19,616 nt of DNA, from NCBI GenBank assembly GCA_950072105.1, contig CATMOE010000062.1, forward strand, positions 1 to 19,616. The letters are read 5' to 3'. The DNA comes from an uncultured Dehalococcoidia bacterium (GTDB lineage Bacteria > Chloroflexota > Dehalococcoidia > Lucifugimonadales > UBA3495). Every line of letters starts with the position of its first letter. Position 1 is the stretch's first letter. A program made the position numbers and the translations under genes. Positions 4,294 to 19,616 of the stretch are shown piece by piece. The notes under the pieces are model-generated. The model was not told where the DNA came from and did no database searches. It saw nothing but the letters and a program-made list of their open reading frames with translations.

Positions 4294-5391
4294 CTAAGGC
4301 GCCATCCTTCCTGGCCCCCACCCGTAAGGGATGTTGACCAGGTTGGGTTCAAGTTCACGGATGTTGGTTTGGCCGCAGTAGGACATTGCCCGGTCCACTT
4401 CTTCCCGCAATAGTTCCAGTACGCCATGGACACCGTCGGCGCCGTTCACCGCTAGTCCCCAGAATAGAGGCCGGCCGATGGCCACGGCCCTCGCTCCTAA
4501 AGCCAGCGCCTTGATAACGTCGCTGCCCCGGCGCACTCCCGAGTCGACGTATACCTCTGCTTGGCCTTTAGCGGCCTCAACGACCTCTGGCACCATCTCG
4601 ATGGCGCCCATGGTCGAGTCCATCTGCCGCCCGCCGTGGGTGGAAACCAAGATACCGTTGACGCCGTTCTCCACTGCCACGTGGGCGTCCTCGGCGGTCC
4701 TGATGCCCTTCAATACCAAGGGCAGGGAGGTTAATCCACGCAGCCATTCCAGATCTTTCCAGGTGATGGGAATGGCGCGGGAGACTTCCCAGCCGGGGGT
4801 TTCGTCGGTACCGCTGATCTCGCTTTGAGGGCGGTCCATCGCCCGGAAGTTACCCAGCTCAAAATTCCGGGAGTATTGGTTGCGAAGGTCCCGCTCTTTG
4901 GGGCTCGGGGATGGGGTGTCGACGGTCAAGCAGATCGCTTTGAAGCCTGCCTCCTCGGCCCGGTGGACCAGCATCTCGGTAAGGTCATATCCCCGGTGGT
5001 AAAGCTGGAACCACAGTGGGCCGGTGGCGGCCTCGGACACCTCTTCCATGCTGTAGTTGGATGAGGTGCTGAGCATCATCAAGGTATCGGACATCCCGGC
5101 GCCCCGAGCCGTCGCCAGTTCGCCGTCTGGGTGGGCGACCATGTGACTGCCCGCCGGGGAGACCATCACCGGCATGCTGATCTTTTCGCCCAGCACGGTG
5201 GTGGAGATGTCCCGTTCGCCGATGTCCCGCAGGAAACGGGGGCGCAGGGTCAGGTCCTCGAAGGCCGACCGGTTGCGCCGTGTGGTGAACTCGTCCATGG
5301 CCCCGGCGTCGATGAAGTCCCAAGTGTCGTGGGAGAGGGTTAGTTTGGCCCTGGCCTCGTAGTCGTAAAGATTGATGGGGTCCATGCTCAT
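4294..5391 (-). CDS. FMN-dependent alpha-hydroxy acid oxidase/dehydrogenase (glycolate oxidase / L-lactate dehydrogenase family), paralog 2
   Basis: WFQLY, LTVDTP, LVLKGI, VSTHGGRQ, DSGVRRGSD, GRPLFWGL. Start at 5391 (MSMDPINL) chosen from RBS spacing and alignment to its paralog; the ORF track start is 5397. Confidence 0.93.
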   Translation of the reverse strand: MSMDPINLYDYEARAKLTLSHDTWDFIDAGAMDEFTTRRNRSAFEDLTLRPRFLRDIGERDISTTVLGEKISMPVMVSPAGSHMVAHPDGELATARGAGMSDTLMMLSTSSNYSMEEVSEAATGPLWFQLYHRGYDLTEMLVHRAEEAGFKAICLTVDTPSPSPKERDLRNQYSRNFELGNFRAMDRPQSEISGTDETPGWEVSRAIPITWKDLEWLRGLTSLPLVLKGIRTAEDAHVAVENGVNGILVSTHGGRQMDSTMGAIEMVPEVVEAAKGQAEVYVDSGVRRGSDVIKALALGARAVAIGRPLFWGLAVNGADGVHGVLELLREEVDRAMSYCGQTNIRELEPNLVNIPYGWGPGRMAP

Positions 5392-5421
5392 GTTCATCTC
5401 CTGGACGGCGGGCTTTTTAGC

Positions 5422-6519
5422 TTAGAAGGATATGGGTCCGGGTCCCCAACCCGCCGGAATGTTGACCAGGTTGGGCTCCAGTTCCTGGATGTTGGTCTGG
5501 CCGCAATAGGACATTGCCCGGTCGACTTCTTCCCGCAACAGCTCTAGGACGCCGTGTACGCCCTCGGCTCCATTCACCGCCAGTCCCCAAAAGAGGGGTC
5601 GTCCGATTCCCACGGCACGTGCTCCCAAGGCCAGCGCTTTAATCACGTCGCTGCCCCGGCGCACTCCCGAGTCCAGGTAGACCTCCGCCTGGCCTTTGGC
5701 CGCTTCCACGACCTCGGGCAGCATCTCGATGGCGCCCATCGTCATGTCCATCTGCCGGCCTCCGTGGGTGGAAACGAGGATACCGTTGACGCCGTTCTCC
5801 ACGGCCATGTGGGCATCTTCGGCGGTCCTGATGCCTTTCAGAACCAGGGGCAAGGAGGTCAATCCACGCAGCCATTCCAACTCCCGCCAGGTAAGAGGGG
5901 TGGTGCTGGAAACGTTCCAGCCGGGGGTTTCGTCGGTGCCGCTGATCTCGCTCCGGGGCCGGTCCGAGCCTCGGAAATTACCCAAGTCGTGGCGCCGTTC
6001 GTACTGGTTGCGCAGGTCCCGTTCTTTAGGACTAGGGGACGGCGTGTCCACGGTCAAACAGATCGCTTTGAAGCCTGCCTCCTCGGCCCGGTGGACCAGC
6101 ATCTCGGTTAGCTCATAGCCGCGATGATACAGTTGAAACCACAGGGGAGCGGTAGCAACGTCGGCCACCTCTTCCATGCTGCAGTTGGAGCTGGTGCTGA
6201 GCATCATCAAAGCGTCGGACATGCCGGCGCCCCTCGCCGTGGCCCGTTCTCCATCCGGATGTGCTTTCATGTGTGATCCCGCCGGGCAGATGAAAACGGG
6301 CATGCTGACCTTCTCGCCCAGCACGGTGGTAGAGATGTCACGTTCGGTGATGTCCCGCAGGAAGCGGGGGCGCAGGGTCAGGGACTCGAAGGCCGACCGG
6401 TTGCGCCGGGTGGTGAACATGTCCATCGCTCCAGCGTCAATGGTATCCCAGTCGTTGTGGGGCAGCGTAAGCTTGGCTCGCTCTTCGTAGTCGTATAGAT
6501 TGATGGGATCGTTGCTCAT
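5422..6519 (-). CDS. FMN-dependent alpha-hydroxy acid oxidase/dehydrogenase, paralog 1
   Basis: Same motifs as its neighbour, about 85-87% aa identity by hand count. AGGAGG RBS upstream of the ATG. Confidence 0.93.
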   Translation of the reverse strand: MSNDPINLYDYEERAKLTLPHNDWDTIDAGAMDMFTTRRNRSAFESLTLRPRFLRDITERDISTTVLGEKVSMPVFICPAGSHMKAHPDGERATARGAGMSDALMMLSTSSNCSMEEVADVATAPLWFQLYHRGYELTEMLVHRAEEAGFKAICLTVDTPSPSPKERDLRNQYERRHDLGNFRGSDRPRSEISGTDETPGWNVSSTTPLTWRELEWLRGLTSLPLVLKGIRTAEDAHMAVENGVNGILVSTHGGRQMDMTMGAIEMLPEVVEAAKGQAEVYLDSGVRRGSDVIKALALGARAVGIGRPLFWGLAVNGAEGVHGVLELLREEVDRAMSYCGQTNIQELEPNLVNIPAGWGPGPISF

Positions 6520-6888: not shown

Positions 6889-7878
6889 CTAGTCTTGGCC
6901 CATAGTGACGGGTATCACGCCGGGTAGCCACCACTTTTCCCAGCTTTCGTCCACCCGGTCTTGGAAGATCTTGATGTCTTCCTTGGTGAAGTGGGCGAAC
7001 CGGCCCTGGCGCATCAGGTATTCCTCTACCGGCTTACGTTTCCGGATGCCCCTGGCGATGGCTCGAGATGGGCCGTTGAGGGTCAACTCACCTTCTATGA
7101 TCTCGTACTGCACCCACAGCCCGGTCTCTACGATCAGCATGCCCAACTCGTGGGAGAACTTTGGGTCGTAGTCCCAGCCTTTGGGGCAGGGGTCGATGCT
7201 GTGGATGAAGGTGGGTCCGCCGATGGTCAGCGCCCGGCGGATCTTGTTGTTGAAGTCCAATCCGTAAGAGCCGTTGGCGGTAGCCACGAATTTGACGTCG
7301 GGGTGGCCCACGGCCAACATGGGCGCCGTGTTTTTCTTCCACCGTTTGTTCATTATTCGGGTTTCTTTTCCCGGTGGGCTGAAGGTGGTGTTGGCGCCGT
7401 AGGGAGTGCTGCCCGATGCCTGGATGTCGGTGTTGGCGTAGGACTCGTTGTCGTACATCAGGATCAGCAGGTTGTATTCGTCGTGCTGCAATGCTGCCGA
7501 GATAGCGGCCAAGCCCATGTCGGCGCCGCCGCCGTCGCCGCAGAAGGCGATTACGTTGATCGGCTCTTTATGCATCTTGCCTTTGCGCATCATCGATGCC
7601 AGGCCGGCGGCGGTGCCGGTAGCGGCCGAGCCGGAAGATCCCAACTGGGTGTGCATCCACGGCACTACCCAAGGAGTGCTGTAGTAGGTGGTGTTGGCCA
7701 CGTACATGCAGCCGGTGCTGCCCACGACGATGGTCCTCTGGCCCGCAGCCTTGATCATCAGGCGCATCACCAGCGCGGACTCGCAGCCCTGACAGGTGCG
7801 GTGGCCGGAGGTGTAGCCTTCGGATATGGGTATATTCTTAACACCTTTAATCTGGGGAAGGTCTTGTACCGTAGTCAT
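6889..7878 (-). CDS. oorB: 2-oxoacid:ferredoxin oxidoreductase beta subunit (TPP-binding), oxalate oxidoreductase-like
   Basis: GHRTCQGC, TGCMYVANT, GDGG...YDNESYANT TPP motif, TPYGANTTFSPPG, PCPKGW. These match Moorella OOR beta as recalled. Confidence 0.85.
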   Translation of the reverse strand: MTTVQDLPQIKGVKNIPISEGYTSGHRTCQGCESALVMRLMIKAAGQRTIVVGSTGCMYVANTTYYSTPWVVPWMHTQLGSSGSAATGTAAGLASMMRKGKMHKEPINVIAFCGDGGGADMGLAAISAALQHDEYNLLILMYDNESYANTDIQASGSTPYGANTTFSPPGKETRIMNKRWKKNTAPMLAVGHPDVKFVATANGSYGLDFNNKIRRALTIGGPTFIHSIDPCPKGWDYDPKFSHELGMLIVETGLWVQYEIIEGELTLNGPSRAIARGIRKRKPVEEYLMRQGRFAHFTKEDIKIFQDRVDESWEKWWLPGVIPVTMGQD

Positions 7879-7879
7879 A

Positions 7880-9109
7880 TTAATTATCCCTCACTCCAAT
7901 CCAGGTGGCTTCCTGTTCGATTATGCCAGTTTCGATGGCTTTTTGCACGATGTCGACCATATCATTTACGTCGTTGACGTGGACCTCGCGGCCTCCCAAT
8001 CCGGCGATGAAGTTCAGCATCAGAGGCCGCTTCTCCATCGGGTATAGGGCCGAGCGCAGTTCGGTGAACAACACCCCGCCGTAGGATGGAGCGCCGTAGG
8101 AATAGTCGCGGTCGACTACACAGACGGCTTTGCACTTGGTCAGAATCTCCTGAAGCTCCTCGGTGGGGAAAGGCCGGAAGAACTTCACTCTAACGAAGCC
8201 AATCTTCCTGCCTGCCTCTTGGAACCGCCTAACGGCAACCCGGACGGGCAACGCCAGAGTGCCCATACCGACGATGATTATATCAGCGTCTTCGGTCATG
8301 TATTCTTCGACGAAGGGACTAGGGTCTCCCCGTCCGAATATCTCTTTAAACTCTTCATAGGCTTTTTTGATGACCCCAACGGACCGGTGCATGGCTTCGT
8401 CCGATTGACGGCGCATCTCCATGAGCCAGTCTTCGTTCACCTGGGGCGCGATCGTTATCGGGTTGTCCGGGTGAAGCTGAAGCTTTCCCCGATCATATGG
8501 CGGCAGAAACTTGTTGACCTGTTCGCTGGTGGGTACGTTAACGATGGCCTGGGAGTGGGTTAGGAACGAGCCGTCGCAACTGACGGCGAAGGGGAGGAAG
8601 ACGGTGGGGTCTTCCGCCACCCGCCAGGCCAGCAGCGCGATGTCCAAAGCTTCTTGGGCCGTGGCGACCCAATAGAGCATCCAGCCCAGGTCCCGCACGG
8701 CCAAAGCGTCGTTGTGCTCAACTCCGAATGCGCCCGGGTCGTCCAACGCCCGGTTGCCTACCATGGCGACCACGGGCAACCGGAGACCGGCGGTAACCGT
8801 GATTGCTTCGAAGGCGTAGAACCAGCCCACGCCGCTGGAGCCGGTGAATGTCCGGGCTCCCACGGAGGAGGCATGCTTGACAATCTCAAACTGAGAGTGC
8901 TCGCTTTCGGCTACGATGAAGTCGCAGTCGAAACTGCCGTCAGCCTTGAGCTTGGAAACGTACTGCATAACGGTGTCGTAGGGACGGATAGGATACGCGG
9001 TAATGACGTCCACATCGGCCAAAGCGCAGGCCAGTGCGATGGCCTCACTGCCGCTGATCAGCTCTTCCTTCTCTGTCTGGAACAGCTCGTTCGTCGCTGT
9101 AGTAGTCAT
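7880..9109 (-). CDS. oorA: 2-oxoacid:ferredoxin oxidoreductase alpha subunit, oxalate oxidoreductase-like
   Basis: YPIRP motif (about 8981-8995) instead of PFOR YPITP; ESEH, TGSSGVG, NRALDDPGAFG, FRPFP, GLGGR. Confidence 0.85.
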   Translation of the reverse strand: MTTTATNELFQTEKEELISGSEAIALACALADVDVITAYPIRPYDTVMQYVSKLKADGSFDCDFIVAESEHSQFEIVKHASSVGARTFTGSSGVGWFYAFEAITVTAGLRLPVVAMVGNRALDDPGAFGVEHNDALAVRDLGWMLYWVATAQEALDIALLAWRVAEDPTVFLPFAVSCDGSFLTHSQAIVNVPTSEQVNKFLPPYDRGKLQLHPDNPITIAPQVNEDWLMEMRRQSDEAMHRSVGVIKKAYEEFKEIFGRGDPSPFVEEYMTEDADIIIVGMGTLALPVRVAVRRFQEAGRKIGFVRVKFFRPFPTEELQEILTKCKAVCVVDRDYSYGAPSYGGVLFTELRSALYPMEKRPLMLNFIAGLGGREVHVNDVNDMVDIVQKAIETGIIEQEATWIGVRDN

Positions 9110-10260
9110 TACGCATCCTCCGACGCGGCGATTTCTTCGGTGTAACCACCGACATGGTGGAAGCCGTGGGTGCGGGTTTCCGCTTTCTGCTTATCCACCA
9201 GGGCGGTCATCCACTGTTGGTAAGAGGGTTTGTCTTCCTGCCAGGCTTCCCACTGGCTGCTGTTGTCGTTGAAATCGGCTTCGCTGACCATGGTCACGCA
9301 GTCGGGCACCGGGCACACGGCTTCGCATACGCCGCAGCCGCAGCAAGACTCCATGTTGGCGTCGTACAGCCCGTCGGGCGTGATGTCGAAACAGGTGTCG
9401 GGACACTGCAGCCAGCAAAGTGTGCATTTGATGCAGGTCTCAAAGTTAATCACCGGGCGCATGGACCGGGTGCTATATTTCTTGAACACTTCGTTCCGGT
9501 CCGGTTGGAAGCCCTCGTCGCCGCCACGGAAGCCGCCGCCCTTGCCTTGGGCCCGGATGACCAATCCTTCCTCCATGGTTTGCCAGCCAAGGAGTTCGAA
9601 TTTGTAGGGTACCTCGGAATTTCCCTCTCCCGGCTCGACCGTCCGGATCGTGGCGACATCGTAGGCTTTTTGCGCCGAGGCCAACTTGGTTTCGCCATTC
9701 CCCTGCTCGTCCAAAGCTTGGAGCATGGAATCTATGCTGAAAAGCTGAGGGCAAACATTGCAGAGCGTGCCTAGGATCCGGGCGTCGGTGTGGTCGTCTT
9801 TGTACACCCACAGGCCGGAGAAGCTTACCGTGCTCTTGATAATGGACAGGTCGAAGGGAGTGTCCTTCTGGTGGATGTCCTCGACCAAAGAGTCGGCATC
9901 CTGGCGGGAGGTCACGATCAACGTCCCGTTAGGCTTGGTTAGCTGATTGATGGGTTGTAGACCGTACCAGGCCCAGGACTCGATCCCTTTGCACATGGTG
10001 TCGTCTACGTTGATGGTTACGTCAACCTCGGTAGGTTCGTAACGTGCTAGAACTTCCTCCAGTTCTTCTGCGTCGTCGGCTACCACGGCGAACTGTTTGG
10101 CCGGGATACCATTGCGCTCCGGGGAGTCGCCGTACCGGCCAAAGGCGGTGCCGATCTTGCCCTCCTTACGCGCGGCGAACACTATGGACCGTACGATGTT
10201 CCGGGCCAGGGTTCTTTGGAATATACCGCGGTATACAACCTCCACGGCAACTGTGCTCAT
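9109..10260 (-). CDS. oorD: 2-oxoacid:ferredoxin oxidoreductase gamma-delta fusion subunit with 2x[4Fe-4S] ferredoxin domain
   Basis: N-terminal gamma-like domain (YGDSPERNGIP) and C-terminal CIKCTLCWLQCP / CCGCGVCEAVCP. Stop overlaps the alpha start (TAATG). GGAGGA RBS. Confidence 0.85.
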   Translation of the reverse strand: MSTVAVEVVYRGIFQRTLARNIVRSIVFAARKEGKIGTAFGRYGDSPERNGIPAKQFAVVADDAEELEEVLARYEPTEVDVTINVDDTMCKGIESWAWYGLQPINQLTKPNGTLIVTSRQDADSLVEDIHQKDTPFDLSIIKSTVSFSGLWVYKDDHTDARILGTLCNVCPQLFSIDSMLQALDEQGNGETKLASAQKAYDVATIRTVEPGEGNSEVPYKFELLGWQTMEEGLVIRAQGKGGGFRGGDEGFQPDRNEVFKKYSTRSMRPVINFETCIKCTLCWLQCPDTCFDITPDGLYDANMESCCGCGVCEAVCPVPDCVTMVSEADFNDNSSQWEAWQEDKPSYQQWMTALVDKQKAETRTHGFHHVGGYTEEIAASEDA

Positions 10261-10304
10261 GGCTATTCCTCCAAAAGATTCTGTTTAGTTAACTTTGACT
10301 ATTG

Positions 10305-10335
10305 GGCTGTCAGCTATCGGCTTTCAGCGGTCAGC
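10305..10335. repeat. Heptamer tandem array (AGCNNTC)n, copy 3, spanning the regulator stop codon
   Basis: GGCTGTC AGCTATC GGCTTTC AGCGGTC AGC; the minus strand encodes the last residues LTAESR* of the regulator. Confidence 0.7.
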
Positions 10336-11120
10336 AGCTTCTCCCGAACCAGATTTCCGTTCAGGGATTGAGAATCGTTGCCAGTCCCAAAATCCTGATG
10401 GCTGAAAGGTGACTGCTGATAGCTCGATACGTTTTCCGGTTCCACGGTGGTCAGGTGGTATTCCATCGCCCGGCGGGCCCCCTCAGCGTCCCCGTTGTGA
10501 ATCTTGCTGAGGATCTCCCGGTGGGAATCTAACGAGCGCTGGGGACGTCCCGGCTCCTGAAGCGATTGGTCACGTGACCGCCGGAGAATGTCCTCCACCG
10601 CACTGACTACCTTAACTAGCGCCGAGTTGTGTGTGGCCGAGGCCATAGCGAAGTGAAACGATGTGTCAGCGTCGACTCCGGTGCCTCCCCCGGCGATTTG
10701 CCGGACCTGCTCCTCCAAGATACTCTCAAGCTCGGCTACTTCTTGCTCATTGGCCCGCTGGGCCGCCAATGCTGCGATCTGTGGCTCAAGCATGTGCCGC
10801 ATCTCGAATATGTGTTTCAGATTGTCTACCCCGGTGTCGGCCCCCGATGTAAGGGTTGAAGCGATCAGCGCCACCATAGATTCCAGGTTATCCGTATTGA
10901 TAAACGTCCCGGAGCCACGTTTGCTGATCACCAGGCCTTGTAGCTCCAGGGAGCGGATAGCTTCCCGGACTGAACTGCGGCTCACTTGAAGCTGTTCGGC
11001 CAACACCCGTTCGGATGGCAGGCGCTCGCCGGGCTTCAATACGCCTTGACGTATCAGGGAGCTGAAGTGCTGCACGATGTCCTCGTATAACCGGCGGCCT
11101 TTAATCGCGTGATCCGTCAT
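10314..11120 (-). CDS. FadR/GntR family transcriptional regulator (PdhR/LldR/GlcC-like)
   Basis: LKPGERLPSERVLAEQLQVSRSSVREAIRSL wHTH; FCD domain with D..FH, HN..L, H.EI and HL motifs. Confidence 0.93.
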   Translation of the reverse strand: MTDHAIKGRRLYEDIVQHFSSLIRQGVLKPGERLPSERVLAEQLQVSRSSVREAIRSLELQGLVISKRGSGTFINTDNLESMVALIASTLTSGADTGVDNLKHIFEMRHMLEPQIAALAAQRANEQEVAELESILEEQVRQIAGGGTGVDADTSFHFAMASATHNSALVKVVSAVEDILRRSRDQSLQEPGRPQRSLDSHREILSKIHNGDAEGARRAMEYHLTTVEPENVSSYQQSPFSHQDFGTGNDSQSLNGNLVREKLLTAESR

Positions 11121-15067: not shown

Positions 15068-15642
15068 TCAGGCGGATTCTGGCTGGACCATCCCCAAGTC
15101 GCCGTCGTCGCGCCGGTAAAGCAGACTATACTCGTGGGACTCAGTGTTCATAAACATGAAGAACTTATGGCCCAGAAGTTGCATCTGGAAGGCTGCTTTC
15201 TCCACCGTCATGGGTTCATCTGAAATCGTTTGACTCTTACCAGATTGCCGGCGCTTAATACTTCGCTTCCGTCGTAAGCCGGGACTCGGGAATCGTCCTC
15301 GGCCTGCTGGGCCCCCAGCGGGACGACCTGCCTGGCTCTCTCGCTGCGGTAGGTCAGGCTCTTGTAACGCTCGATTCTTCTATCCAGAACTCCGGCCACC
15401 AGATTGACTGCCTCTATGGCGTTTGCCGCCCGTTGCTCAGCCCGGAGCAATGAGCCGCCCACGTTCAATGTCACCTGGACCGTCATGCGGTCGTCTTGGG
15501 AGCGGGTCGGCTGGGAGGACAACTCCACCTGCACACTGGATATAGCTGGGAGATGCCGGATGAGGCCGCCAAATTTCCGTTCGATATGTGCCCGGAGTTG
15601 TTTATTTACGTCGACGTTGTTCGCATTTATGTTCAATTCCAA
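15068..15642 (-). pseudogene. hpf: Long-form ribosome hibernation promoting factor (HPF/RaiA), split by a 1-nt frameshift near 15211-15216
   Basis: The S30AE N-domain ORF 15642-15208 ends KRFQMNP*. The -1 frame continues MTVEKAAFQMQLLGHKFFMFMNTESHEYSLLYRRDDGDLGMVQPESA* (15211-15068), the typical long-HPF C-terminal domain. May be a sequencing error in an intact gene. Confidence 0.85.
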
Positions 15643-18077: not shown

Positions 18078-19616
18078 TCAGTGATGAGTGCCTTGGAAGC
18101 CGAATCCTTTGGCGTCCGCGGCGATAAGCAGCTCAGGACGGTTACCCCACCTTCGAAGGAAGCGCCCAAAGTTCTTTCGGCTCAGCTCATCCCGCTGATT
18201 CTCGTCCAGTTCGGTCCATTGCCGATGCTCGTGCCGGACAAAGGGCAGGGAGCCGTCCGAGACGATGCGATATCCCTTGTCTTTGAACTGGAAACAGTAG
18301 TCTATATCCAAGTTACGGTAGAAGCGGAAGCACTCCCGCATCAGTCCAACGGTAGACACTAATTCCCGCCGGAACGTCATGCAGTAGGCTTGCATGGCGT
18401 CGGCTTCCCCTTCCTCCACCTCTTCATGAAAGTGCTGTAGGTCATCCGTGGACAAGCCATAGGGTCCGAAGATGCCGATCGACTCTTCGGCCAGCCGTTG
18501 CCCGATGGGGTCGAGGATGTTGCCGACGATCTCGGTCGAGCCGTCCAACATGATTATGTTTCGGCCTAGACTTTGCTTGAGAGCGATATTCTTCCCCGCG
18601 GCGTCTCCCACGTTGTGGTCGCAGTGGATCACCCGCAAAGTGTCGTGGGAGGATTGGAATTCCTCTAGCCATTCGGCCGTGCCGTCGGTGGACCCGTTGT
18701 CCACGACGATTATCTCGCTGGAGTAGTCTCCCGAGTACTTGAGCATGCTGCTGACGCAACGCTCCACGTCTCCCGGATGGCCGTATGCGTTGAGAACGAA
18801 GGAAAAGTCGTATTTGTCGGGCTGATCCAGAAGCGACTCCACTTCACGGGAGGACGAGACTGAGGCCCAACGCTCTCGTTGCTGTTCCAAGGGTGTCTTG
18901 GGGCGGATACGCGCTTCTTCCAGGGTGTCTTCCAGCAGGAACCCCTTGGAGAGAATGTCGGCGCGCAGGGCGTCGGCGGCCGTGTAATCGGCCTCCTGGC
19001 GCAGGCTGCCCCGCTGGCCCACCGAGGCGGCTACCGGTTCAGGCACGGCGTATTCCACCGGTACTTGATCCAGGTCAAGGCCGTAGATGCTGTCGTACTC
19101 CAACAGCAGCGCTAACTTGGCTTGTCCGGGAAGGCTGGAGCGCACCATGTCCCATGTTTGTGCCAGCGCCGCCGGCATGTCCAGATCGTTTTCCACCGCG
19201 GACCAGAATTTCTGGCGCCACTCGTCTGTCTCGGGAGGAAGCTCGTCCAGCGGGGGCAACCCCTTCCAAACCCAGATACGGTGGCGGAGGTTGGTCAGCG
19301 CTTTTTCGGCGGCCTTTAGCGAGGTAAAGGTGAAGTTCATCCGGTGGCGGTAGCGAATCGTCAGGCAGAGGTAGCGGAAGGACAGGGGAGCGAACCCCCG
19401 GGAGATCAGTTCATCAAGAAGGAATACGTTGCCCGAAGATTTGGCCATCTTGGCCCCGTCGGCCAGCAGGTGTTGGGCGTGGACCCAATATCGCACGTGA
19501 GGCTTGCCGAAGGCGGCCTCGCTCTGGGCGATCTCGTCCTCATGGTGGGGGAATATGTTGTCCACTCCCCCGGTGTGGATGTCGAATTCTTGGCCCAGAT
19601 ATTTTTCGGCCATGGC
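18078..19616 (-). CDS. cysS: Cysteinyl-tRNA synthetase (C-terminal half, 5' end outside window) fused to a C-terminal GT2 (GT-A fold) glycosyltransferase domain
   Basis: DIHTGGVDNIFPHHEDEIAQ, KMAKS (KMSKS variant, 19437-19451), NDLDMPAAL, ADALRAD...GFLLED anticodon domain; then in frame EIIVVDNGSTDGT, NVGDAAGKN, IIMLDGSTE, DIDYCFQFKDKGY, VRHEH. Confidence 0.88.
   Translation of the reverse strand, partial: AMAEKYLGQEFDIHTGGVDNIFPHHEDEIAQSEAAFGKPHVRYWVHAQHLLADGAKMAKSSGNVFLLDELISRGFAPLSFRYLCLTIRYRHRMNFTFTSLKAAEKALTNLRHRIWVWKGLPPLDELPPETDEWRQKFWSAVENDLDMPAALAQTWDMVRSSLPGQAKLALLLEYDSIYGLDLDQVPVEYAVPEPVAASVGQRGSLRQEADYTAADALRADILSKGFLLEDTLEEARIRPKTPLEQQRERWASVSSSREVESLLDQPDKYDFSFVLNAYGHPGDVERCVSSMLKYSGDYSSEIIVVDNGSTDGTAEWLEEFQSSHDTLRVIHCDHNVGDAAGKNIALKQSLGRNIIMLDGSTEIVGNILDPIGQRLAEESIGIFGPYGLSTDDLQHFHEEVEEGEADAMQAYCMTFRRELVSTVGLMRECFRFYRNLDIDYCFQFKDKGYRIVSDGSLPFVRHEHRQWTELDENQRDELSRKNFGRFLRRWGNRPELLIAADAKGFGFQGTHH

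Follow-up and report, generated by a model that had tools for sequence, protein, structure and literature searches.

Cysteinyl-tRNA synthetase fused to a GT-A glycosyltransferase domain in Dehalococcoidia, a candidate enzyme acting on tRNA-Cys

In LysX and ErdS, a dedicated synthetase is fused to a tRNA-using enzyme, a membrane-linked transferase of the GNAT type. As for the glycosylation of tRNA, QTGAL is of the GT2 type, and we know of no base other than queuosine that is glycosylated in tRNA. tRNA-Cys does not contain queuosine. The animal enzymes QTGAL and QTMAN are described as glycosyltransferases on the tRNA anticodon loop, at Q34 of tRNA-Tyr and tRNA-Asp. YadB/GluQ-RS is presented in PMC7373986 as a synthetase paralog reused for tRNA modification. 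In terms of GT-A enzymes, the xED and C-His motifs are defined in PMC7185993, and GT6, GT14 and WrtF are given as active without DxD (PMC7185993, PMC12595478). A full-text literature search, with supplements and most subscription journals outside its scope, returned no published description of an architecture joining cysteinyl-tRNA synthetase (CysRS) and a glycosyltransferase (GT).

Such a gene lies at the end of the window analysed here, a stretch of 19,616 nucleotides that makes up an entire contig (C62) of an uncultured Dehalococcoidia bacterium. We observed a single frame without a stop on the minus strand, 512 aa long and open at the contig end (Table 1). The final 77 bases of the window are identical to the first 77 of contig C22, which supplies the absent N-terminal half of the fusion (246 aa) with CGPTVY, HIGN and GWHIECSAM present; inspection of the N-terminal HIGH motif, proposed in the original prediction, thus gives HIGN. 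Joined, both contigs encode 733 aa, the length of an unbroken ORF in a genome of the same genus (G001, 98%/97% identical), and the protein of that genome served as a stand-in for full-length analyses. In Pfam, tRNA-synt_1e matches residues 1-104 of the window protein with 108 bits, and Glycos_transf_2 matches residues 273-359 with 57.6 bits (cut-off 23.3). The motifs FPHHEDE, HAQH and KMAKS, as well as DGS at 18545-18537, were found where the original prediction had placed them.

Table 1. Positions of the fusion gene, its domains and its motifs in the window
Feature	Position	Strand	Basis
CysRS-GT-A fusion gene, C-terminal 512 of 733 aa	18078..19616	-	ORF and C22 overlap
5' 221 codons of the fusion	contig C22, start TTG at C22:740		77-base overlap with window end
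End of class I CysRS catalytic domain	19350..19616	-	PF01406; motifs kept in 39/39 representatives of the fusion
Zinc ligands H245/E249 in FPHHEDE	19553-19533	-	
HAQH	19481-19470	-	
KMAKS	19451-19437	-	
CysRS stem-contact fold and DALR helical bundle	19056..19349	-	TIGR00435, model helices, 1LI5/3SP1 alignment
CysRS anticodon-binding domain	18900..19055	-	residue-for-residue alignment to E. coli CysRS
R423; D451; R427, D436 and R439	19013-19011; 18929-18927; between these	-	alignment and conservation
Linker, 28 aa	18816..18899	-	ordered in predicted model; SVSSSREV-type second half conserved
GT-A (GT2-like) domain	18120..18815	-	PF00535, fold Z about 20, 2z87 alignment, tallies
DNGSTD	18701-18684	-	GT-A domain
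DGSTE replacing DxD	18545-18531	-	GT-A domain
YRNLD with xED-Asp D658	D658 at 18308-18306	-	2z87 alignment
HEHR with C-His H683	18233-18222	-	2z87 alignment
SRKN	18182-18171	-	GT-A domain

The union of CysRS and GT2 in one uninterrupted ORF, the central claim of the original prediction, is real. A stop or frameshift at the junction was sought in contigs of public runs and none was found: three contigs from three runs (X1, X5 and X6) span the junction in one piece without an indel, and in a fourth run X16 spans it inside one record (18439-18989). Six RNA-labelled runs contain the stretch, and the three that were examined cover the intergenic gap flatly as well, so that they are no evidence of transcription. 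In terms of close relatives, the domains are not always unlinked, with open frames of 734-801 codons, or the identical contig cut, in 32 of the 40 genomes of the order. At least 120 homologues are listed, mostly of 732-737 aa with both Pfam domains; one with 71% identity is labelled SAR202 cluster bacterium, and other homologues carry Dehalococcoidia names, which puts the organism among the marine Chloroflexota. An assembly artefact, or two genes read through as one, could draw on the contig end that cuts the gene and on the contamination estimate of the genome (6%), but against it stand the relatives with long frames or the same cut, the homologues of similar length and the four runs that bridge the junction. 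This reading is refuted and we give it practically no chance. The fusion is confirmed as the architecture of a real gene.

The canonical cysS of the same genome was found on contig C2 with 509 bits, behind genes whose sequences we interpret as ispD and ispF. Strong matches to the GT part, all of them in long frames, are present in 32 of the 40 genomes of the order, this genome included, and 30 of these carriers, again with this genome among them, also have a canonical cysS; the two carriers lacking one are 85% and 89% complete. Since nearly all fusion genomes hold both genes, the fusion is a second CysRS in this order, a possibility raised in the original prediction, and not the ordinary cysS. 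The same architecture was also found in further families of Chloroflexota. A quick tree was built from 82 catalytic domains (midpoint root, three partial sequences excluded), and in it the 37 fused CysRS domains form one group with an SH-aLRT of 94. Nearest to it are unfused CysRS from families in which the CysRS anticodon-binding domain, here called the reader, occurs with the GT in a stand-alone protein, and the canonical copy is far away. That the fused domains make one clade across Chloroflexota families suggests an old pairing.

In the CysRS half, H[ILV]GN, KM[AS]KS, GWH and HHExE are each kept in 39/39 full-length fused representatives, and HxQH in 38/39. The motifs had been described as slightly drifted; they are instead traits of the family, with no decay. 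The zinc ligands C28, C220, H245 and E249 are likewise invariant (39/39), corresponding to C28/C209/H234/E238 in the E. coli numbering. The full-length same-genus protein passes TIGR00435 with 401.6 bits (cut-off 340), the match of the fusion extending to model position 459, and the closest profile for this half is PRK14536. The top Foldseek match of the model is 1u0b_B, from the E. coli CysRS-tRNA complex (E 3e-36, TM 0.85 of target). The fused CysRS is probably active in tRNA-Cys charging. The lineage appears able to charge tRNA, because in two genomes (G087 and G073) no full-length CysRS other than an unfused enzyme of the sister clade was found. When the CysRS body and the GT domain were modelled together as a complex, the score was 0.02, which counts neither for nor against a contact.

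As for the reader, R423, R427, D436, R439 and D451 of the E. coli enzyme map one-to-one onto the fusion in the alignment to 1LI5. We take R423 and D451 to be anticodon-reading residues. For the others, PMC4536326 describes a hydrogen bond from R427 to G34 in E. coli CysRS, and gives R427, D436 and R439 as mutated anticodon-contact residues. Conservation was counted over 99 representatives at 70% identity (43 fused and 56 stand-alone, with six unclassified ones excluded), taking in only proteins that cover the reader. R423, R427, D436 and D451 are each present in 56/56 stand-alone and 42-43/43 fused proteins, and R439 in 50/56 and 42/43. Among fused proteins the reader averages 33% identity to that of G001.

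At E<=1e-30, a GT-domain profile gave matches in 101 of the 401 genomes of the phylum, a tally that takes in one genome marked unpublished (G302), on which no conclusion depends alone, and roughly half of the matches are short proteins. At least five families of Chloroflexota have stand-alone reader and GT proteins, about 300-330 aa in length. At the 20 short loci examined, the reader lies inside the called ORF in 18 and in frame upstream of the called start in two; Pfam names it CysS_C in several short proteins. In a scan of genomes that started from an actinobacterial member, 76 of the best 80 loci showed the short architecture; the records are nearly all labelled Actinomycetota and the others unlabelled, and no CysRS catalytic domain was found within 6 kb of the short loci. 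Channelling of Cys-AMP, an option in the original prediction, therefore cannot be the core of the system if it takes place within one chain, since the GT occurs without a ligase in cis in many lineages. Five loci have cysS tail-to-tail with the short gene (L092, L093, L094, L097 and L117), and in four of them this cysS has its own reader. As the cysS and the adjoining gene usually each carry a reader (L092-L094 and L097), the domain was duplicated and not merely split off.

Since the reader and GT stand alone and still hold the anticodon-reading residues, the conserved unit under selection is, at the sequence level, a tRNA-Cys reader with a GT-A domain, smaller than the fusion. Tested over 328 GT matches, only 24 had no reader match and 18 of those are cut at the N-terminus. 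True losses are the degenerate copy L116 and the related fused or partial proteins P0152, P0175 and L113 (the last falsely counted as reader-positive in this tally), which have similar junctions and are probably a single lineage of reader loss. L170 and L183 show apparent frameshifts, and P0124 is a doubtful case.

Some degenerate and additional copies were also observed. L116:7528-9180 (G377) is a degenerate second copy with a remnant N-terminus, DALR and a divergent GT, and no anticodon domain. In family f59, some genomes (e.g. G379 and G435) have the full fusion together with a divergent stand-alone copy, in which R439 is changed to K and the YR and His motifs are altered, and CysRS-related genes number up to four per genome. 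The idea that the stand-alone protein has its missing half in a short reader-less CysRS, found 7-30 kb away in family f48, was rejected, because this short CysRS groups with the canonical clade, not with the fused one, and is widespread without the module.

In terms of the GT-A domain, the predicted model of reader and GT has a pLDDT of 95 and a pTM of 0.87, and aligns to 6yv7 over 218 residues (Z 20.7, rmsd 3.4). The alignment to 2z87 places D658 at the xED aspartate and H683 at the C-His. Among the representatives, the xED aspartate is kept in 97/99, the C-His in 96/99 and a second histidine, H685, in 92/99, with Y654 in 94/99, R655 in 93/99, S700 in 96/99, N703 in 99/99 and E583 in 95/99. 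The predicted change of DxD to DGS is borne out, the third position being Ser in 83/99 and Asp in none of the 99. The xED glutamate is missing in 99/99. Of the fused proteins 36/43 have the DNGS aspartate, of the stand-alone ones 35/56. With this aspartate in only 35/56 of the latter, and with neither the second Asp of DxD nor the Glu of xED in any protein, a metal/NDP-sugar site of the classical kind is doubtful.

The dN/dS values of the GT part are 0.047 against G001 and 0.018 against G002, both of the same genus, and those of the CysRS part are 0.044 and 0.050. The GT-A domain is under purifying selection. Its site is probably a selected, catalytic one with an unusual donor pocket. An ESM Atlas search returned generic GT2 clusters only, and no transmembrane stretch was found in the 512 aa (top 19-residue hydropathy 0.94).

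The neighbours of the gene within its own family correspond to housekeeping synteny: glycine oxidase-like and cyclophilin-like genes, his genes, meaB, DUF429 and hpf. The only neighbour seen across families is a peptidase S51 gene (dipeptidase E/cyanophycinase-like), within about 8 kb at seven loci of six families (L108, L110, L112, L118 and three more) and directly downstream in L110 and L118. Actinomycetota loci have ftsH and local genes in common. No thiol or sugar operon stands beside the gene across families. Elsewhere in the window, all on the minus strand, we observed two tandem similar ORFs, alpha-hydroxy-acid oxidase-like by their sequence, of 367 and 365 aa (4294-6519), which look like a recent duplication, and a cluster read as a three-subunit 2-oxoacid:ferredoxin oxidoreductase (6889-11120) with a GntR-type regulator ahead. 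The ORF of the ribosome hibernation factor HPF (15208-15642) stops at 144 aa, just inside the apparent C-terminal domain, and is possibly truncated or frameshifted.

The almost constant company of the GT domain and the reader points to an undescribed enzyme acting on tRNA-Cys. The original prediction had argued for tRNA involvement from the retained anticodon domain, and the persistence of the reader beside the GT even without a catalytic CysRS is consistent with this. Of the three uses it proposed, which were a glycosylated low-molecular-weight thiol, a cysteinylated envelope glycan and a modified tRNA-Cys, the last is favoured for the same reason. We tentatively prefer, with somewhat less than even confidence, a second and probably active CysRS that carries a soluble GT-A enzyme modifying tRNA-Cys. 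The mechanism that we infer, from tRNA binding and catalysis to donor and modification site, would begin with the reader gripping the GCA anticodon and placing tRNA-Cys beside the GT-A site. The GT-A domain would then, most likely, take a sugar or similar group from a donor activated by a nucleotide and attach it to the tRNA, with D658 as the base and DxS, HxH, YR and SxxN forming the altered donor site. The anticodon arm is the probable site of modification, as the GT domain hangs directly from the reader. The synthetase body of the fusion would enlarge the surface that binds the tRNA and may charge that tRNA as well, while the canonical cysS would handle routine translation. A fuller version is rather unlikely in our estimate: that this is the first bacterial tRNA glycosyltransferase, in which a GT-A enzyme took over the CysRS reader to place a sugar on tRNA-Cys, with a second CysRS fused to charge it or hand it over.

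No differences were seen between 28 tRNA-Cys genes of carriers and a non-carrier set, in a comparison where the search pattern fixed the loop and the rest was compared. Nor does anything suggest that another modification has replaced that at A37: 39/41 carriers and 31/32 non-carriers have miaA, and because the gene is near-universal in both, replacement of i6A37 by the module was rejected. Glycosylation of queuosine had been considered with queA beside the fusion in L112 and tgt in L114. It was rejected as a general target, since tgt was not found in 10/44 carriers, including 3/3 genomes of family f58 (95-97% complete) and 5/5 Actinomycetota genomes. As separate observations, this genome has one tRNA-Cys gene, with many other tRNAs in two or more copies, and a tRNA-Sec gene on another contig (C5:40412-40508).

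The extra synthetase is explained best by a different reading, a Cys-tRNA-dependent transferase. Here Cys-tRNA-Cys would be produced by the CysRS and picked out by the reader, and the GT-A fold would bind a sugar or glycan acceptor that receives the Cys. The product would be a glyco-thiol or a cysteinylated envelope polymer, following a logic like that of LysX and ErdS. Such a transferase would account for the kept reader, for a synthetase with motifs intact in 39/39 beside a canonical cysS in 30/32 genomes, and for the lost donor motifs, and the single old clade of fused CysRS across Chloroflexota families (SH-aLRT 94 in the quick tree) agrees with it. It would have to span the length of the tRNA, as the anticodon and the 3' end that bears Cys are about 75 A apart, but the GT is tied to the reader by a short linker that is ordered in the model. 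Moreover, the protein has no membrane domain, acceptor-pathway neighbours are not common to the loci, and we know of no GT-A aminoacyl transferase; we regard it as unlikely. Chances are lower, and distinctly on the unlikely side, for a GT-A domain that is a non-catalytic sensor or RNA-binding module regulating tRNA-Cys availability or CysRS activity, with a nucleotide-sugar, a nucleotide or a metal as candidate ligand. The loss of DxD in all proteins and the variable donor-loop aspartates would suit it, as would the His-rich tails of several families and a Fur-family gene directly adjoining the fusion in two loci, and the stand-alone form would sequester tRNA-Cys. Against this, the xED aspartate, two histidines, Tyr-Arg and SxxN are kept above 90% at 30-40% identity, which is the pattern of an active site, and the inactive GT-A protein COSMC, as PMC7185993 describes it, has lost both DxD and xED, and the aspartate of the latter is kept here.

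The reader itself bears on the remaining readings. An ordinary soluble glycosyltransferase acting on a glycan, a lipid or a protein, which joined a spare cysS in the past and keeps the reader as passenger or folding partner, agrees with the plain GT2 fold and profile, with the one lineage that lost the reader and with the lack of a tRNA-Cys signal in the gene comparison. A passenger, however, would not hold on to five particular surface residues across two phyla in a domain that otherwise drifts to 33% identity, nor be duplicated upon fission, and we find this improbable. The reader of the stand-alone proteins is also left unexplained by a mycothiol-style two-step thiol synthase, in which the GT would supply a glycoside for the CysRS half to ligate with Cys-AMP, without tRNA. 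This genome does offer a setting for it, with an mshA-like GT4 (364 bits, cut-off 462.5), two inositol-phosphate synthases and five PIG-L deacetylases, and the slot of the cysteine ligase is open, neither bshC nor a short MshC-like gene having been found. The fusion, though, scores 222.4 bits on the MshC model (TIGR03447, cut-off 485.1), where the canonical CysRS is higher with 306. With four candidates scored per genome, an mshA-like gene is present in 73/101 carriers (72%) versus 191/300 non-carriers (64%), and it is missing in all 13 f48 and all 11 f69 carriers. Pathway genes never recur beside the gene across families, and many fusion carriers, like many non-carriers, have a separate reader-less MshC-like paralog. 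The predicted glycosylated thiol thus draws no support from neighbours or co-occurrence, and we see only a slim chance for this synthase.

Some observations touch on these subjects. His-rich C-terminal tails of 50-70 aa are found on fusions outside this order (L101-L108, L112, L114 and L118), and the C-terminus of the window protein is a short HH tail. Of the two loci where a Fur-family gene adjoins the fusion, one is L108, which also has a cobalt ECF transporter nearby. Chloroflexota hold a distinct reader-less MshC-like clade: this CysRS paralog of about 400 aa is widespread (L199-L212 and L216-L218, e.g. L205:6366-7550), scores 358-397 bits on TIGR03447, below the cut-off, groups with canonical Chloroflexota CysRS and is often downstream of tatD. 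It is present in family f48, where the mshA-like gene was not found, and may mark an undescribed cysteine-glycoside thiol pathway. The mshA-like gene occurs in 264/401 phylum genomes, with none above the cut-off. In this genome it is a full-length GT4 (C39:14892-16127) flanked by a GNAT-like gene, and no MshC-like partner was found.

Either leading reading, if true, would mean new chemistry, be it bacterial tRNA that bears a sugar or Cys-tRNA as a substrate of a GT-A fold. In the fuller version of the preferred one, SAR202, soil Chloroflexota and uncultured Actinomycetota would share a new kind of tRNA modification. The anticodon-binding domain would also be a portable address label for a non-synthetase enzyme. 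Annotation as 'cysteine--tRNA ligase' and 'glycosyltransferase' hides the family, whose marine and soil hosts are abundant bacteria. In the 310-aa stand-alone form, the borrowed reader domain names the likely substrate.

In terms of known systems, the protein compares as a member of the CysRS family with a GT-A fold, and not as an MshC, LysX-type or QTGAL-type protein. With bacterial class I CysRS (E. coli 1LI5/1U0B and Borrelia 3SP1) it shares HIGH, KMSKS, the zinc ligands, DALR and the anticodon domain, but it bears an extra C-terminal GT-A domain of 260 aa. Compared with the canonical cysS linked to ispD and ispF, it is a second copy in a separate clade, with a DVGHM insert and HxQH. MshC (cysteine:GlcN-inositol ligase, TIGR03447, 3C8Z) is, like the fusion, a non-housekeeping CysRS paralog with the CysRS catalytic fold; it has no anticodon domain, whereas the fusion, as predicted, has one and scores far below the TIGR03447 cut-off. 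The membrane part and GNAT/DUF2156 domain that characterise LysX, MprF and ErdS are both absent, the top hydropathy being 0.94 and Pfam finding only tRNA-synt and GT2 families in the 733-aa relative. YadB, as far as its description goes, keeps the catalytic domain and drops the reader, and the stand-alone reader and GT would be the reverse. The solved GT2-type enzymes PcManGT (6YV7), K4CP (2Z86), SpsA (1H7L) and WrtF (9OMH) have the same GT-A fold (Z 19-21, rmsd 2.5-3.5 A, about 200-220 residues) and share the positions of the xED aspartate and the C-His. The fusion GT differs from them with DxS for DxD, xLD or xAD for xED, an extra HxH and YR, attachment to an anticodon reader and 14-23% identity. 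Finally, QTGAL and QTMAN offer a working analogy for the best explanation, a GT on the anticodon loop. They have no CysRS-derived domain, and the tgt expected in a host of a QTGAL-type enzyme is missing in 10/44 carriers of the fusion or module; if the best explanation holds, the fusion would work like them.
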